From: Alphaproteobacteria bacterium SS10
GTDB taxonomy: Bacteria > Pseudomonadota > Alphaproteobacteria > TMED2
DNA length: 64,000 nt
Assembly (NCBI GenBank): GCA_019192455.1
Contig: JAHCML010000008.1
Coordinates: forward strand, 638 to 64,637
Direction of reading: 5' to 3'
The position numbers and the translations under genes were made by a program. The notes beneath the pieces were generated by a model. The model ran no database searches and was not told where the DNA came from. It saw only the letters and a list, made by a program, of their open reading frames with translations. Each line of letters starts with the position of its first letter. The stretch's first letter is position 1. Shown here piece by piece: positions 30,671 to 59,270 of the stretch.

Positions 30671-31981
30671 ATGACCGCCTTTAGCCCCCGTGAGATCGTC
30701 TCCGAACTCGACCGCTACATCATTGGCCAGGATGAGGCCAAGCGCGCCGTCGCCATCGCGCTTCGCAATCGTTGGCGTCGGCAACAGCTGGAAAGCCCGA
30801 TGCGGGAAGAGGTGCTGCCGAAAAACATCCTGATGATCGGCCCGACCGGCTGCGGCAAGACCGAGATTGCCCGCCGCCTGGCCAAACTGGCCGAGGCACC
30901 ATTTATCAAAATCGAGGCGACCAAGTTTACCGAGGTCGGCTATGTCGGCAGGGATGTGGAGCAGATCGTCCGCGACCTGATCGAAACTGCGATCACCATG
31001 ATCAAGGATAAGCAGCGCAAGGCGGTCCACGCCCGGGCTGAGCTACTCGCCGAGGATCGGGTGCTTGATGCCCTGGTTGGCGATAACGCGTCTGAGGAGA
31101 CCCGCACCAAATTCCGCGCCCGCCTGCGTAATGGTGAGCTGGATGATCGGGAGATTGAGATCGAGATGGCGGATACCGGCAGTGGTGGTATGCCGACCAT
31201 GGATATCCCCGGTATGCCCGGCGCCCAGATGGGCATGATCAACCTGCAAGACATGCTGGGCAAAGCCCTGGGCCAGCCGATGAAGAAGCGCCGCATGCGG
31301 GTTGCCGACAGCTATGAAGGCCTAGTTGCGGAGGAGGCGGACAAGCTTCTTGACGAAGATAAGGTGCTGACGGAGGCGAAGGAGGCGGTTGAGCAAAACG
31401 GCATTGTCTTTCTGGATGAGATCGACAAGATCTCCGCCCGCTCAGAATACAAGGGCGGGGATGTCAGCCGCGAGGGCGTGCAGCGTGACCTGCTGCCCCT
31501 GATTGAGGGCACCACCGTCTCAACCAAATATGGGGCGATTAAAACCGACCATATACTGTTCATCGCCTCCGGTGCATTCCACGTCGCCAAGCCATCTGAC
31601 ATGCTGCCAGAGCTTCAGGGTCGCCTGCCGATCCGGGTGGAGCTTAAAGCTCTGACTGAGGCTGATTTCCGCCGGATCCTAACCGAGCCAGAGGCCAGCC
31701 TGATTAAGCAGTATGTGGCGCTGATGGGCACGGAGGGGGTGACCCTGGACGTCACTGATGACGCCATTGATGCCCTCGCCAAGCTAACGGTTGAGATCAA
31801 TAGCTCGGTTGAGAATATCGGCGCCCGCCGCCTGCAAACGGTGATGGAACGCCTGTTGGAAGAGATCAGCTACACAGCCTCAGACCGCAAGGGTGAGACC
31901 ATCACCATCGATGCAGAACTCGTCACCGAACGCGTCGGCGAACTCGCCAAAGACGCTGACCTATCGAAGTTTATACTGTAA
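30671..31981 (+). CDS. hslU: ATP-dependent protease ATPase subunit HslU
   Basis: [32 protein letters not shown], Walker A GPTGCGKT. Confidence 0.95.
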
Positions 31982-32019
31982 ATTCTTGCTCATCATAGTA
32001 TGCGTCGGACTAAGGCGAT

Positions 32020-32628
32020 TTGATGAGTAATCTTGCTGAAATTGTAAAGAATCTGAAGGGGGCATTCTACGCTGCATTTGGCGGCCTTATGGCGCTAATG
32101 TTTATCTATTATGGGTTTGATTTTCTATTTTTGAGGAGCCGATTTTTGAATGGCGATGCGATCGTCATTTACCATATGATCGGGTTTATCTCTTTTTTAA
32201 TTGGTTTGCTTGTCCTATCTGTATCTCTAATCGCTTTTACTTTTGTTAAGCTTAATATTACTGATCAGAAACTGAAATATGTATTAGTCTGGTTAATAGT
32301 AGCATTGGGTGTTGCAACAATAATTCTGATGGTCGGTTTTCCCAGAACAATTGGTCAGAATATGGCGTTCCAGAATGGCTATGTCTTGTGTCTAACTCAG
32401 GACTCAATGCGAGATCGTGGCGCTAGGTATTATGCAATCGACCAGGTGGCCTGCGACACATTTAAATCCTATTACGGATCGAGATTAAGGCAGACTACTA
32501 GGGGTGGGTGTTACTCAATAAAGTTAACAAGCGCAGATATCAGGGCGTTCAATAGAGACTATCCCGACAAGATATCTGGTTCCGATGCGCGTCGGCGTGC
32601 CGTACAAGGTCTGATCAGACAACAGTGA
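32020..32628 (+). CDS. AT-rich hypothetical membrane protein (3 predicted TM helices + Cys-containing C-terminal domain)
   Basis: ATG start. Codon usage conspicuously AT-rich (third positions A/T; ~35-40% G+C by eye) in a 60%+ genome. Confidence 0.5.
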   Translation: MMSNLAEIVKNLKGAFYAAFGGLMALMFIYYGFDFLFLRSRFLNGDAIVIYHMIGFISFLIGLLVLSVSLIAFTFVKLNITDQKLKYVLVWLIVALGVATIILMVGFPRTIGQNMAFQNGYVLCLTQDSMRDRGARYYAIDQVACDTFKSYYGSRLRQTTRGGCYSIKLTSADIRAFNRDYPDKISGSDARRRAVQGLIRQQ

Positions 32629-32718
32629 TTAAATTTCTGGCGGATCAGATATCTTTTGCGCTTTCGCATGATGGGCGCAGGGTCGGCTTAACAACGTTAG
32701 TATTAAGCAGTTTGTGCC

Positions 32719-33630
32719 ATGTCTTCACCCGCTACCATGCGTCGGCCCGCCCTTGCGGCCCTTGCTATTGGTGCCACCCTGCCGTCAGGCGGGGCGCTGG
32801 CTGATGACGCCAATTTCGGTCGGTCGCCCGCGCTTTGGCTGGCCCAAGCGACGGTGCCATCAATCACCCAACCTGCCGCGAATGTGTTGGTGCTGGATGC
32901 AAGCCAACTGACCACGGGCGCGATGATTGAGCATGACGGGCCCATTCGCATCTATGGCGACATCGTTGGCACCGGCCCGCGGATTGAGATCCGAACCCCC
33001 GACCTCGAAGTTTTTGGCTCGGTTACCGGTCCGAATATTCATCTGCTAACCCAGCCCCTTGGTGGGGTTGATCTGCACCGGGTGGATGAGCATACCGCCC
33101 GGCTTAAAATCCATGGTGATGTACAGGTTCTAAATGGCCATATCGGTGGTGCCGGTACTGGTGAGCTCGACGTACTTGGCAATGTCTCCCTAAGCGGCTT
33201 TCGAGCCGCTACGGGTATGGTGAGTTCGATGTTCCTGGGCCGTGAGGTCTGCGTTGCCGGCAGCTTGGATGCGACCGGCATTCCTCACGCCGTGATGGTG
33301 GGGGCAGATGATCTTCGGGTTGGTCGCGATGTGACCGGTGCCGATCTCAATATCGGCGTGTACTCGGTTGGCTCGGCCATGACCCATATTCGGGAAGAGG
33401 GCGAGCTGCCCAGTTTCCCAGGCAGCGCCCTCATCGGTGGCAGCGTGCTGGGTGACCGGATTACCATCAGCAATGGTGAGGTCAGCATCGGCGGTATCAT
33501 TCAAGGCGCCGATATCAACATCATGGGCCAGCGTTCACCATTGCTGGTCCTGCCAGAGGATGTCAGCTGCGAAGACCCGGCAGCCCTATCAGACAACCGC
33601 CATCAACCCCCAGCCGCCCGGTTTGGGTAA
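32719..33630 (+). CDS. secreted beta-helix repeat protein (bactofilin/DUF4097-like repeat pattern)
   Basis: Signal peptide MRRPALAALAIGATLPSGGALA, then ~18-20-aa periodic repeats (IYGDIVGTGPRIEI / VFGSVTGPNIHL / IHGDVQVLNGHIGG / VLGNVSLSGF / VGRDVTGADLNIGV / IGGSVLGDRITISNGEVSIGGIIQGADINI). Confidence 0.5.
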   Translation: MSSPATMRRPALAALAIGATLPSGGALADDANFGRSPALWLAQATVPSITQPAANVLVLDASQLTTGAMIEHDGPIRIYGDIVGTGPRIEIRTPDLEVFGSVTGPNIHLLTQPLGGVDLHRVDEHTARLKIHGDVQVLNGHIGGAGTGELDVLGNVSLSGFRAATGMVSSMFLGREVCVAGSLDATGIPHAVMVGADDLRVGRDVTGADLNIGVYSVGSAMTHIREEGELPSFPGSALIGGSVLGDRITISNGEVSIGGIIQGADINIMGQRSPLLVLPEDVSCEDPAALSDNRHQPPAARFG

Positions 33631-55624: not shown

Positions 55625-55948
55625 ACTGGTGATAACGGAACCAAATCCTACCCAGGGGAACTGAGTAAAGGAGCGTCATACCACTAGCCGGTCATTGCGG
55701 GCCCCTACCCCCTTAATCCGCATCCGCAATCCCGGCAGTTCAGGCACCGGCCTCGCCTATCCCCCTCAATGTCAGGCGATGCCGGTGCCTCTCAAGTTTT
55801 AACGCCCCCGAAGCCCACCGGGCTTCAAGACCCAGATGGGGGCGTGTCCACGGATGGCCGAACCTTCGGCCTAGGCATGGGCGTCCGGTCCAGGGTAAAG
55901 CTAGGGCGGTTTCGGTTCCCCCACTCTAGCATTACGGATCAGGCGCCC

Positions 55949-56752
55949 ATGCCTCCTTCTGATACACCCTCCACCGCTGACACGGCCTCTGACAATCTGG
56001 CAGAGGATCACGGCACCCTGGTCATCACCGGTGGGTCGCGCGGCATTGGTGCCGCTTGCGCCCGGTTGGCGGCGAGGCGCGGTTATGATGTCGCGATCCT
56101 GTTCGCCAAGGATGAGGCTGCGGCCGAGGCGGTGGTCGCCGATTGCAACGCCGCCGGTGTCCATGCCCTCGCGGTGCAGGGTGACGTCTCAGACCCGAAC
56201 CATGTGACCAAGCTGTTTAAGACGGCGGCCGAGGATCTGGGCCCGGTTCGCGCGTTGATCAACAATGCCGGGATTACGGCACCGCAGGGACCGTTTGAGA
56301 GCTATACCGTCGACCGGATGCAGCGCGTCTTTGCCACCAACATCATGGGCGCCTTCCTGACCGCACAGGAAGCGGTGCGCCATATGGCCAAGCGTAATGG
56401 CGGTCAGGGCGGAGCGATCGTCAATGTCTCCTCCGCCTCCGCCCGGCTGGGCAGCCCGAATGAATATATCGACTACGCCGCCAGTAAAGGGGCGATGGAC
56501 ACCATGACCATCGGCATGGCGAAAGAGCTGGCGGGTGAGGGCATCCGCGTCAACGCGGTCCGCCCCGGCATCATCGACACTGAAATCCACGCCCTAAGTG
56601 GCCAACCCGACCGCGCCGACGAACTAGCCCCGGTCCTCCCCATGGGCCGTGCGGGTTCAGCGGAGGAAGTGGCAGAGCCGATTTTGTGGCTGCTGTCGGA
56701 TGAGGCCAGCTACATGTCGGGTGCGTTGCTTGATATTGCTGGAGCCCGCTGA
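55949..56752 (+). CDS. SDR-family oxidoreductase
   Basis: TGGSRGIGAACA, NNAG, S...YxxxK (YAASKGAM). Start at ATG 55949 inside track ORF 55769-56752. Confidence 0.8.
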   Translation: MPPSDTPSTADTASDNLAEDHGTLVITGGSRGIGAACARLAARRGYDVAILFAKDEAAAEAVVADCNAAGVHALAVQGDVSDPNHVTKLFKTAAEDLGPVRALINNAGITAPQGPFESYTVDRMQRVFATNIMGAFLTAQEAVRHMAKRNGGQGGAIVNVSSASARLGSPNEYIDYAASKGAMDTMTIGMAKELAGEGIRVNAVRPGIIDTEIHALSGQPDRADELAPVLPMGRAGSAEEVAEPILWLLSDEASYMSGALLDIAGAR

Positions 56753-58105
56753 ATATGGAAGCTCTCACTTTTGAAGATGCAGAGAGTATTTTTGATAACT
56801 TAAACAAGGCTGTAGTGTCCATACCAGACAAATTACTCTTGTTTCCTGAAGATCCTTCGCATTTTTATACTCATGGAATTGTATTTGATCTGAATGATTA
56901 GGAAAAAAAACGTAATTTTGAGAATTCAGTAAAAATAATTTTAAGAAAACTCAAATTAAATAGTGAGCTTGAGCCAGAATATTTTGATATTCAAAGAATA
57001 ATATTCAAGTGTTTCTGTCGTGTTAAAAAAAATTATCTTGGGGTGAGTGATTTACTTGAATCTCTTAATGAAGAAATAAGTAAGTATGGTGAAAAAGTTT
57101 ATAATGCAATTTTCCCATGTGGATATTTTTATTTTATTAACAAGATGATGGGATTAAGAAGCAACTATATATCTATTATAAATAAAAATTCAATAAAAGA
57201 CCTCGATGCAGATTTTAAGGTTTTTAGCGAAGCGAAAATCCCTGGAGATCATGAATGGTATTGGCTGGTCAAAAGTCGTTGTTCTGCACTCTCGTGCCAG
57301 CCAAAAGCATACTGGATGGCTGGTGTTTTCACATCTGCATTTAGGCTAGGGCTTCAGGCAAATTCAATATGCTTTCGCGCTGGTAATGGTCAGGTAGAGC
57401 CTCATCCAGATAGCAATATGTTTAATACGGTGCCCTTCTTGTGTGGCGAGCATAGTGGCAATACTTTTTACCAGGACTCGGGTGGGAAACCCTCTCAATA
57501 CTGGGTAGATGCTCCAAATAAGGCCGATTTTTATCGGGAAGATTTTCAAGATAAAATAAATAAAATTTTCCAAAGAAAAAAAGGAACTATATCTGAATCT
57601 TTATATTATTCCTTGGGTTGGTTGGCCTCTGCAAGGCAGTCTTATGATAGAGCGCACCGTGTCGTTCTATATTTTACTGCATTAGAGTCATTTTTAAATG
57701 TGGGCAAGGGATTGCCAATTTCTGATACTATATCAAGATTTTCAAGCTGTATAATAACAGATTTGAGTAATAATAGAGAAAAATACTACAATAAAATCAA
57801 ATATCTTTATAAAATAAGATCAAAAATAACCCATGCGGGTGTAAGGGAGGTTGAATTCAATGATCTCATTGCTGTTGAGGATTTTATAAATGAGGTTTTT
57901 CGAATTTCTCTTTATTTGATCGATATTGAAATGCCTATGCAAGAGTTTCACGAGCACCTTAGAAGTTCAACTCATGGAATTGATCTGAGTATCTGTTCAA
58001 GATTTAAATAGTCTCTGCTGTATGGAATGATTTTCAAGATTATTTTTGTAAGCATTACAGTCAACGATTGGCTTCAGGCAAACGGTCGAGGTTGCTGTGC
58101 CAATA
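56753..58105. other. AT-rich single-gene genomic islet (putative horizontally acquired), no mobility genes
   Basis: Composition drops abruptly to ~30% G+C (by eye) exactly between the SDR stop (56752) and the stop of the convergent gene (58106). Long A/T runs are present. Confidence 0.7.
56755..58011 (+). pseudogene. HEPN-domain protein gene (Abi/defence-like RNase candidate) interrupted by an in-frame TAG at 56899-56901
   Basis: ATG 56755 opens a 48-codon ORF ending at TAG 56899-56901, in the same frame as track ORF 57043-58011. The 47 codons between them are stop-free and contain no ATG/GTG/TTG. The C-terminal part carries the HEPN motif IRSKITHAG (Rx4HxG). Alternative reading: an independent CDS from GTG 57043 or ATG ~57145. 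Confidence 0.5.
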
Positions 58106-59059
58106 TTAATCAACTTCACCCACATCGACGCTGAACCAGCCAGCTTCGCCGATTAGGTGCATTCGGCTGCCATGGCCGATCGGGTTTAGGTGCCGGATGT
58201 CCAGCCGCCCATCCGGCAGTTTGGCGCGGTAGGCCTGGGGCTTTTCCGATAGCTTGCCGTCACGGCGGATTAGGTGGAAGCGGCTATTGGCCTCACCATA
58301 TTGGCGGCTAAGCAGGAAGGCATCATCGCTGACCGCGATGGCGTCCGAGCCGTTGATGCCCCGGGATTGGAAGAACTGCACTTCAAAATCCGTGTCGTCC
58401 TGATCCATGCCGATCTGGCAGATGCGGAAATCTTCGTAATAGTTAATCCAGACGCCGTCGGTGGTGATGTTGAGGGCATAGCAATCATCGATGCTGCTCT
58501 CCTTCACCACATGGTTGAAGGACCACAGTAGCTCGCCATGGTCATCGAAACAGACCAGGCCACCCTCACCCGGGCTAAGCGGGCTATCGCCCTCGCCCCA
58601 GCCGTAATTGCCGAAGATGCCCTCATCATAAAAGCTGGCCCAGATCCGGCCACGGCCATCGACACCGATAGCGGTGACGGCGTCGCCGATTAGGAAGCTA
58701 TAGGCATGGCCGGTGATGGGGTCATAGACGGCGGCGTTCTGATCGCAGGTACCGTCGCGGTAGAGTTGACTGCGCGGTTCAACCAGCAGCAGGCGACCAT
58801 CGGGGAAGGTGGTGACATAGGCCGGGTCTTCCAGATGCAGCAGGGTGATCTCAATCTGCTTGGTCGCCTTAGGCGTGACGATGAACAGCTTAAGCGGGGC
58901 CTTATCCTCGCCGCTGCCGGGTTCATTCGCCTTACAAAGGAACAGCCCCTCACCGGTTGATGAGATGCCCTGATAGGCATGCCAATAGCCCTCTGGCGCC
59001 GCCGGCACATCGGCATGGCGTTGGAAGCTCAATGTCTTTGCAAGTTTCATATAGCGCAT
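58106..59059 (-). CDS. hypothetical protein (possible beta-propeller-like repeats)
   Basis: 317-aa ORF with ATG start, normal GC, Asp/Gly-rich repeat-like segments; no recognisable domain. Confidence 0.45.
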   Translation of the reverse strand: MRYMKLAKTLSFQRHADVPAAPEGYWHAYQGISSTGEGLFLCKANEPGSGEDKAPLKLFIVTPKATKQIEITLLHLEDPAYVTTFPDGRLLLVEPRSQLYRDGTCDQNAAVYDPITGHAYSFLIGDAVTAIGVDGRGRIWASFYDEGIFGNYGWGEGDSPLSPGEGGLVCFDDHGELLWSFNHVVKESSIDDCYALNITTDGVWINYYEDFRICQIGMDQDDTDFEVQFFQSRGINGSDAIAVSDDAFLLSRQYGEANSRFHLIRRDGKLSEKPQAYRAKLPDGRLDIRHLNPIGHGSRMHLIGEAGWFSVDVGEVD

Positions 59060-59270
59060 TGATCAAACTCCGATCCCGGCATGGTGGCGGGTCCCTTATT
59101 TCATGAAATCAGGCTGTCATTCCTGAATGGAAGCGGCAATGCAGGGCTGGGTTGCGGCGTGGCGCTAACCCGCATGCTACCTTGCTTGTGCACCTGCGAA
59201 GACCTGAAACGCATACCGGGTTTGCGGCTAGTGGCCGCCTCTTTCATGGACATGTCGGGATCTTGCGCTA

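Follow-up and report, generated by a model that had tools for sequence, protein, structure and literature searches.

Stand-alone proteins with a HEPN domain are among the closest described systems to the gene that we report here. In a canonical HEPN domain, an R-x4-6-H motif lies at the end of core helix 3 and a polar residue follows the arginine (PMC3710099). HepS is a single HEPN protein that acts as both sensor and effector: it stays inactive until a phage tail-tip protein switches it on, and then cuts tRNAs in their anticodon loops (PMC13043305). The HEPN toxins RnlA and LsoA, of anti-phage type II toxin–antitoxin (TA) systems, also belong to the closest known systems. Here, we analysed a stretch of 64,000 nucleotides from Alphaproteobacteria bacterium SS10 (contig JAHCML010000008.1, hereafter the window), in which an AT-rich islet of 1353 nt (56753-58105) carries a HEPN gene on the + strand. 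The islet gene is probably a horizontally acquired HEPN gene of the defence or toxin type that was inactivated by a nonsense mutation; most likely, the allele of SS10 lost its function recently and is now a pseudogene.

The islet protein shares with the HEPN superfamily (PMC3710099) the fold and the active-site class of its C-terminal domain. It differs in that no named HEPN family of Pfam matched, also when the consensus of the islet family was the query, and in that the islet family has a fused N-terminal domain of about 270 aa that has no known relative. Like HepS, ApeA/Gao_Ape, PD-T4-5, PD-T7-3, AbiJ, AbiV, PrrC and RloC, the islet family is stand-alone, with no conserved partner. Further likenesses to single-protein HEPN defence systems are the intact R-x4-H of the HEPN effector and the neighbourhoods of mobile, TA and defence genes. 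However, HepS is shorter than 250 aa and has no extra domain, whereas the proteins of the islet family measure about 435 aa. HepS is also prophage-borne, whereas the islet family is essentially absent from phages, and PrrC and RloC carry ATPase domains that are missing from the islet family.

We compared 101 members of the family with the profiles of PADLOC (cut-off E <= 0.01). None matched the profiles of ApeA, PD-T4-5, PD-T7-3/4, Hhe, AbiJ, AbiV, AbiD/F, AbiU2, PrrC or RloC, and the only matches were to DzbB (11 members) and GajB (1 member). DzbB of the Dazbog system (PDLC03836) is the sole defence-library model with recurrent similarity (best E 1.4e-5); the window protein matched it with an E of 1.5e-3 over profile positions 269-337 of 341, in the region of the R-x4-H helix. 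Dazbog is a two-gene abortive-infection (Abi) system, of which DzbA is the presumed sensor of methylated DNA. At the islet, the DzbB match is partial and there is no adjacent DUF262 DzbA gene, the neighbours being genes for an SDR oxidoreductase and a hypothetical protein. The best and only recurrent similarity in Pfam was to MauJ (PF17419, methylamine utilisation protein J, function unknown), found in 21 of the 101 members (best E 7e-7) over the first three HEPN helices including R-x4-H. Neither the HEPN region of the window protein (13.5 bits) nor the family consensus (18.7 bits) reached the gathering score of this model (28 bits). The MauJ model, of 116 positions, contains nothing that corresponds to the N-terminal domain, and the islet has no methylamine-utilisation context. 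Both the DzbB C-terminus and MauJ may contain HEPN-like domains that have gone unrecognised; a literature search found no description of either as HEPN. An antitoxin of the HEPN-MNT or RnlAB kind was not found either: the DNA beside the gene is 94 nt of non-coding sequence, the islet holds no second open reading frame (ORF) of note, and no antitoxin-like neighbour recurs in the 14 loci of relatives.

HEPN domain and N-terminal region of the islet protein

To collect relatives of the islet protein, we ran phmmer exhaustively against 1.84 billion cluster representatives (cut-off E <= 1e-3). This yielded 305 relatives at E <= 1e-3, 192 at E <= 1e-10 and 7 at E <= 1e-30, with the query's own cluster counted. 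The closest is 32% identical, most are 420-445 aa long, and 118 of the 150 best relatives measure 400-480 aa. Word-indexed homologue searches, with a single sequence and with two alignments, returned almost nothing besides the protein itself. In Pfam, NCBIfam, PHROGs and the PDB sequences, no query gave a significant match, whether it was the window protein, one of its relatives or the family profile. The plasmid-borne relatives in Sinorhizobium, Agrobacterium, Martelella and Thalassospira carry the RefSeq/PGAP label 'HEPN domain-containing protein'. The family is unnamed and uncatalogued; its kind, in which a stand-alone HEPN effector sits on an acquired islet, is already known.

The C-terminal HEPN-fold domain (57574-58008, +) is all-helical and contains the motif R-S-K-I-T-H-A-G (57817-57840, +), an instance of R-x4-H-x-G. 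In the stretch IRSKITHAG, the arginine is encoded at 57817-57819, the histidine at 57832-57834 and the glycine at 57838-57840. These are R355, H360 and G362 of the joined translation and R306, H311 and G313 of the 369 residues that follow the in-frame TAG codon described below (all residue numbers from here on refer to these 369 residues unless stated otherwise). All three are invariant in 122 aligned sequences, and S307 is conserved in at least 90% of them. The other invariant residues in this set are W240, T259, E262 and R292, with R245 in addition in the set of 101 sequences, and the conserved blocks of the family read LGWL..RGRQ, FTALE and R-S-x-L-V-H-x-G. The second of these, the F-T-A-L-E motif (57673-57687, +) with its invariant T and E, may supply the conserved acidic residue that HEPN domains have upstream of R-x4-6-H, typically as E-x3-[KR] in helix 2.

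In a confident AlphaFold model of the 369 residues (pLDDT 90.2, pTM 0.90), three helices at the N-terminus are followed by a middle part of mixed alpha/beta structure and by the all-helical C-terminal domain. R306 and H311 lie at the C-terminal end of the helix 289-312, the long third helix of the HEPN domain, and E262 lies in the helix 250-265. The domain therefore has the HEPN R-x4-6-H signature, including the polar serine after the arginine, and its four-helix up-down bundle is the HEPN fold: the modelled C-terminal domain matches HEPN structures. The preliminary description, made from the DNA letters, had pointed to a HEPN R-x4-H-x-G motif, and both the invariance of the motif among relatives and the modelled fold uphold this. 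Homology searches placed the protein in no non-HEPN family above threshold.

The N-terminal region (about 272 aa, 56755-57570, +) comprises a helical and a mixed alpha/beta subdomain and has no known relative by fold or family. Foldseek found nothing significant for the full 369-residue model in the PDB. The N-terminal part had already seemed unfamiliar on first inspection, and it stays so at the level of both sequence and fold. For one relative (P0004), the N-terminal region was modelled with a pLDDT of 91.0 and a pTM of 0.81, and the segment equivalent to the residues before the TAG reached a pLDDT of about 96. In this model, that segment forms helix 1, helix 2 and a beta-hairpin, and the TAG aligns to residue 2 of helix 3.

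The reading frame and its amber codon

A single frame is open from ATG 56755 to TAA 58009-58011, apart from the TAG at 56899-56901. It thus contains 2 stops in 419 codons, compared to 20-50 stops in each of the other five frames. The frame consists of 48 codons (56755-56898, +), the TAG as codon 49, 47 stop-free codons without ATG, GTG or TTG (56902-57042, +) and an ORF of 322 aa that starts with GTG (57043-58011, +). This ORF is the only NCBI annotation in the islet ('hypothetical protein' KI792_13435, MBV6634023.1). The layout is exactly as it had first been read, and the suspicion that 47 open codons would hardly arise by accident agrees with the calculated probability of about 0.005 at the local composition.

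The frame represents one ancestral gene of 418 codons (56755-58011, +), consisting of the N-terminal domain and the HEPN domain and broken by one TAG, as the preliminary description had proposed. A hidden Markov model (HMM) of the family, built from 118 full-length relatives with the window protein left out, matched the joined translation as one collinear domain across the TAG (HMM 16-432 to residues 8-410 of the joined translation). The score was 241.6 bits; it fell to 233.3 bits when the first 48 residues were left out, and the 322-aa ORF scored 226.0 bits. The 48 residues before the TAG thus add 8 bits; when they were shuffled, the score was 233.3 +/- 0.7 bits and the real score was reached in 0 of 1000 cases. 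The 47 residues after the TAG, homologous to helices 3-4 of the family, add 7.3 bits, and the real score was reached by 13 of 1000 shuffles. The phmmer alignments of three relatives (P0003, P0009 and P0030) begin at query residues 28-30 of the post-TAG translation, and query residue ~120 pairs with residue ~190 of the relatives. This means that full-length relatives reach about as far upstream as ATG 56755. The sole conserved feature of the family N-terminus, G-x-x-F, matches HGIVF just upstream of the TAG (alignment A1), at the hairpin that follows helices 1 and 2. Codon 49 itself stands opposite ordinary residues in 14 full-length relatives, and neither a stop nor a frameshift occurs there in any full-length relative of the alignment. 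We found no orthologue that starts at the downstream GTG with unrelated sequence upstream of it.

An exact 13-nt direct repeat, ACTCATGGAATTG, occurs at 56869-56881 and 57970-57982. Both copies encode THGI, one near the end of the 48-codon ORF and the other near the end of the gene. A second exact 13-nt direct repeat lies at 57350-57362 and 58070-58082. The chance expectation, estimated from base composition, is about 0.05 per 13-nt repeat, and no function is apparent. The THGI repeat had raised the idea that the 48-codon ORF is the remnant of a tandem paralogue; we discarded it, since the 48 residues fall at the family N-terminus, and in register, when aligned to the profile.

In the window, TAG ends 16 of the 49 long host ORFs. 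This shows that the standard code applies and that TAG is an ordinary stop. The islet gene therefore has a premature in-frame stop relative to its full-length homologues, at a codon that terminates translation in SS10, as expected of a pseudogene. The 369 codons past the TAG are fully open and keep all residues that are invariant in the family, so that the TAG is the single lesion. The SS10 genome (HetDA_MAG_SS10) is a metagenome-assembled genome (MAG) of the Micavibrionales from a cyanobacterial enrichment that had been in laboratory culture for 5 years (PMC9933672). With one lesion, the rest of the gene intact and this long laboratory history, the loss of function is likely to be recent. During 5 years of culture, the nonsense mutation could have become fixed because phage pressure was relaxed or because a toxic gene was selected against.

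The truncated ORF might instead be functional, possibly with altered regulation, starting either at GTG 57043 (322 aa) or at ATG 57148 (287 aa). The open post-TAG codons with their invariant residues would fit such a product, the downstream ORF is called both by NCBI and by the Logan gene caller (the latter as 287 aa from ATG 57148), and shorter family entries of, e.g., 234 and 255 aa are present in the database. However, no Shine-Dalgarno or promoter-like site is found upstream of GTG 57043. The 322-aa ORF is missing about 100 N-terminal residues that are present in relatives: a start at the GTG would remove helices 1-4 and the hairpin, and ATG 57148 lies inside the modelled beta-sheet of the N-terminal domain. 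The lengths of the best relatives also argue against a short form, and the short entries may be fragments at contig ends. A working truncated product thus seems rather unlikely.

We see only a slight chance that the TAG is not fixed or not real, i.e., that it is a consensus error or one allele of a population with intact copies in the same sample. The genome is a metagenome-assembled consensus of subsampled reads, sequenced by Illumina MiSeq and assembled with MEGAHIT (PMC9933672), which leaves room for this explanation. Over 16.8 kb that include TAG 56899-56901, the window is 100% identical to the Logan assembly of SRR14140256, the read set of the project; this sole confirming assembly was built from the same reads. 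Still, two different assemblers arrived at the identical base from Illumina data, Illumina substitution errors seldom survive consensus, and the site itself is not a homopolymer. Protein collections, with 5.8 billion indexed proteins, contain no intact close variant of the islet protein.

The last way around a nonsense mutation is deliberate bypass, in which low amber suppression or a -1 slip from ATG 56894 would yield small, tolerable amounts of a toxic protein of full or nearly full length. An A8 homopolymer (56903-56910, +), a potential slippage site, begins two bases past the TAG. Through this tract runs a 12-codon ORF in the +1 frame (56894-56932), which starts at ATG 56894 and encodes MIRKKNVILRIQ before its stop. 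A -1 shift from this frame on the classical slippery heptamer A_AAA_AAC (56905-56911) would enter the main frame, and the frame downstream of the TAG is intact; no support for such a shift was found, nor was a stimulatory structure seen, although no search was aimed at one. Bypass is nevertheless highly improbable. TAG is not reassigned, the window has no tRNA gene of any kind, and the aligned full-length relatives have neither stop nor frameshift at this position. We also rejected ATG 56894 with A8 slippage as the ancestral start, because the residues before the TAG are homologous to the family N-terminus. A nonsense mutation was one of three options named when the TAG was first noticed; it is the one that we favour, and sequencing error and programmed readthrough are less likely.

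The islet and its insertion site

The islet spans 56753-58105 and is a 1353-nt insertion between the stops of two convergent host genes. To the left lies the host SDR oxidoreductase gene (MBV6634022.1, 55949-56752, +), the stop codon of which ends 2 nt before the islet ATG; to the right lies a convergent host gene that encodes 317 aa (MBV6634024.1, 58106-59059, -). The G+C content of the islet is 34.4%, compared to 59.5% in the remainder of the window and 57.9% in the SS10 genome (PMC9933672), and the islet ranks lowest among all 1353-nt stretches of the window. The G+C content at third codon positions (GC3) of the islet frame is 0.28, whereas 49 host ORFs have a mean of 0.69 and a minimum of 0.62. 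In 300-nt windows, the G+C content falls to a minimum of 0.28, with a partial rise to 0.46 at the islet centre (57250-57549). The drop starts almost directly at the SDR stop codon (56750-56752), and its right edge, where the G+C content rises from about 0.25 to about 0.55, lies at ~58050-58065, i.e., 40-55 nt past the TAA of the gene. Windowed G+C thus confirms the sharp dip that had been judged by eye, although the estimate of roughly 30% was slightly low.

To examine the insertion site, we used a 1085-nt contig (L086) from Logan SRR22824283 that encodes a variant of the right-flank protein with at least 90% identity. This contig aligns to 56647-56750 of the window (81.7% identity) and then directly to 58110-59068 (95.0%), and the islet is absent. 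The stop codons of the SDR gene and of the homologue of the 317-aa gene are 13 nt apart, with TGGCGGTCAGCGC as the spacer. As the two genes are neighbours at about 13 nt in this related strain, the islet represents an insertion that lies precisely between the stops of these convergent genes, in place of a spacer of about 13 nt. Its presence in one strain and absence from the other at a conserved site, together with its deviant composition, mark the islet as horizontally acquired. The initial suggestion of recently acquired foreign DNA thus holds, and the synteny that it called for shows the flanks adjacent without the islet. The nearest GTDB representatives have none of the SDR gene, the 317-aa gene or the islet gene upstream of dapF; with a DapF that is 57% identical, they are too distant to be informative about synteny.

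The two flanks differ in their divergence from the related strain, with 19 mismatches in 104 positions on the left and 48 in 959 on the right (Fisher p = 6e-6). The C-terminal 34 aa of the SDR protein show 1 difference, whereas 18 of 35 codons are changed synonymously. The far greater divergence on the left is a sign that a recombination breakpoint may lie at the islet. Judged from these 104 nt of left flank, the pattern would fit an islet that came in with a larger segment through homologous recombination and not on a mobile element. At the junction (58106-58112), the C-terminus of the right-hand protein reads ...GEVD in SS10 and ...GEVEG in the related strain, each followed by the stop; the insertion may have supplied the last codon and the stop of the convergent gene.

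No mobility signals accompany the islet. It has no integrase or transposase, no tRNA target and no flanking direct repeats, and the HEPN gene is its only coding content; a tRNA search of the whole window returned nothing. The lack of integrase, transposase and tRNA had already been remarked on at first reading. Direct and inverted repeats at the islet boundaries were not above chance, and promoter-like and terminator-like sites in the islet were not in excess of chance. The non-coding tail of 94 nt (58012-58105), which reaches the stop of the convergent gene, has no terminator-like site and a fold z-score of -0.78.

Two further observations concern other parts of the window. A scan with Rfam gave no significant match; a weak match to CsrC at 55659-55853 (-), overlapping the region upstream of the SDR gene, scored 16.7 bits where the gathering score is 61 (E = 0.054) and is almost certainly due to chance. 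A second low-GC patch lies at ~31689-32795, with a 500-nt G+C minimum of 0.39. It contains an ORF of 202 aa (32020-32628, +; GC3 0.42) just past the end of an hslU-like gene, with hydrophobic, membrane-like segments and no Pfam match, which may be another small acquired gene.

Relatives, proposed function and significance

The relatives of the islet gene occur as stand-alone genes. In 14 loci, with 115 ORFs as neighbours, the only recurrent family is that of integrases (4 loci), and an all-against-all BLAST of the neighbours, which would expose a hidden partner gene, found sharing only between near-identical loci. A BrnT/BrnA pair lies directly upstream of the relatives at L066 (3244-5180) and L067 (1762-3715), which come from different samples, and at no other locus; these pairs are complete TA modules in themselves. 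The neighbourhood of a relative on a Sinorhizobium plasmid includes an integrase, VapBC, a GIY-YIG nuclease and UvrD, and that of a relative on a conjugative Martelella plasmid includes genes for RepC, an ArdC-like protein, VapC and a thermonuclease. Several relatives have a low G+C content in high-GC hosts (0.43 compared to 0.70 at L066, 0.39 compared to 0.70 at L067, and 0.53 compared to 0.70). In viruses, the family is represented by 1 partial match among 2.9 million viral contigs, and by none in 50,697 phage genomes. The single viral match is an ORF of 187 aa (L070 5965-6528, IMGVR_UViG_3300002334_000367) that covers only the HEPN part at 29% identity; it may be a truncated or domain-only version of the family.

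From this genomic context, we infer a putative Abi or anti-phage role for the intact gene. The protein would be an RNA-cleaving toxin of the abortive-infection or defence type, for which PrrC, RloC, ApeA-type proteins and HepS serve as models of RNA cleavage and growth arrest. By analogy, the N-terminal domain would hold the HEPN nuclease silent and sense the trigger. After activation, the R-x4-H motifs of two HEPN domains would come together in a metal-independent RNase site, and this site would cut cellular RNA (tRNA, rRNA or mRNA) and thereby stop growth. The ancestral gene would have depended for its expression on transcripts reading through from the SDR gene, the stop of which ends 2 nt before the islet ATG; a GGAG at 56741-56744 lies 10 nt before ATG 56755.

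It is less probable that the family has no anti-phage role and is instead a selfish addiction or toxin module, or a housekeeping HEPN protein, perhaps MauJ-like, in RNA processing or regulation; we would give this a minor but real weight. The closest Pfam family, MauJ, comes from methylamine-utilisation clusters, plasmid-maintenance and TA genes are as frequent among the neighbours as defence genes, and some HEPN domains are non-catalytic binding domains (PMC3710099). In the islet family, however, the catalytic signature is fully invariant, as is typical of active HEPN RNases. The absence of a conserved antitoxin-like partner and the patchy, horizontally mobile distribution with a low G+C content in several hosts also speak against this alternative, and the MauJ match of the window protein stays below the gathering score.

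Several points weigh against the interpretation of the islet as an acquired and inactivated defence gene. No catalogued HEPN defence model of PADLOC matched, and what similarity there is to DzbB is weak and C-terminal. The acidic residue E262 is outside the typical E-x3-[KR] context, as position +4 is S or L and not K or R. The Logan contig is a separate assembly of the same reads as the MAG and hence not an independent sample. Two genomes allow no formal decision between an insertion in SS10 and a precise deletion in the related strain, although composition favours insertion. Finally, the intact 369 codons past the TAG could also reflect selection on a shorter product that the cell still makes.

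A more far-reaching form of the proposal, which we consider possible and offer tentatively, is that the family is a previously uncatalogued single-protein HEPN Abi system with a new sensor fold in its N-terminal domain, that it spreads as a naked single gene, and that the SS10 allele has been freshly silenced. Such a naked gene would land between convergent genes without any mobility function.

If intact members of the family are anti-phage RNases, they would add one more single-gene HEPN system to the defence catalogue, and the N-terminal domain, which is without structural precedent, would be a candidate for a new phage-sensing module. As a find in this window, a single broken accessory gene is of modest weight, and the details of its insertion will not surprise a specialist. 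It does provide a better description of the 322-aa 'hypothetical protein' of NCBI, as a disrupted HEPN gene of ~418 aa and a pseudogene candidate. The locus is also a clear case from nature of the gain and decay of such genes: a single inserted gene sits exactly between two stop codons, the site is empty in a sister strain, and a nonsense mutation marks the first step of decay.

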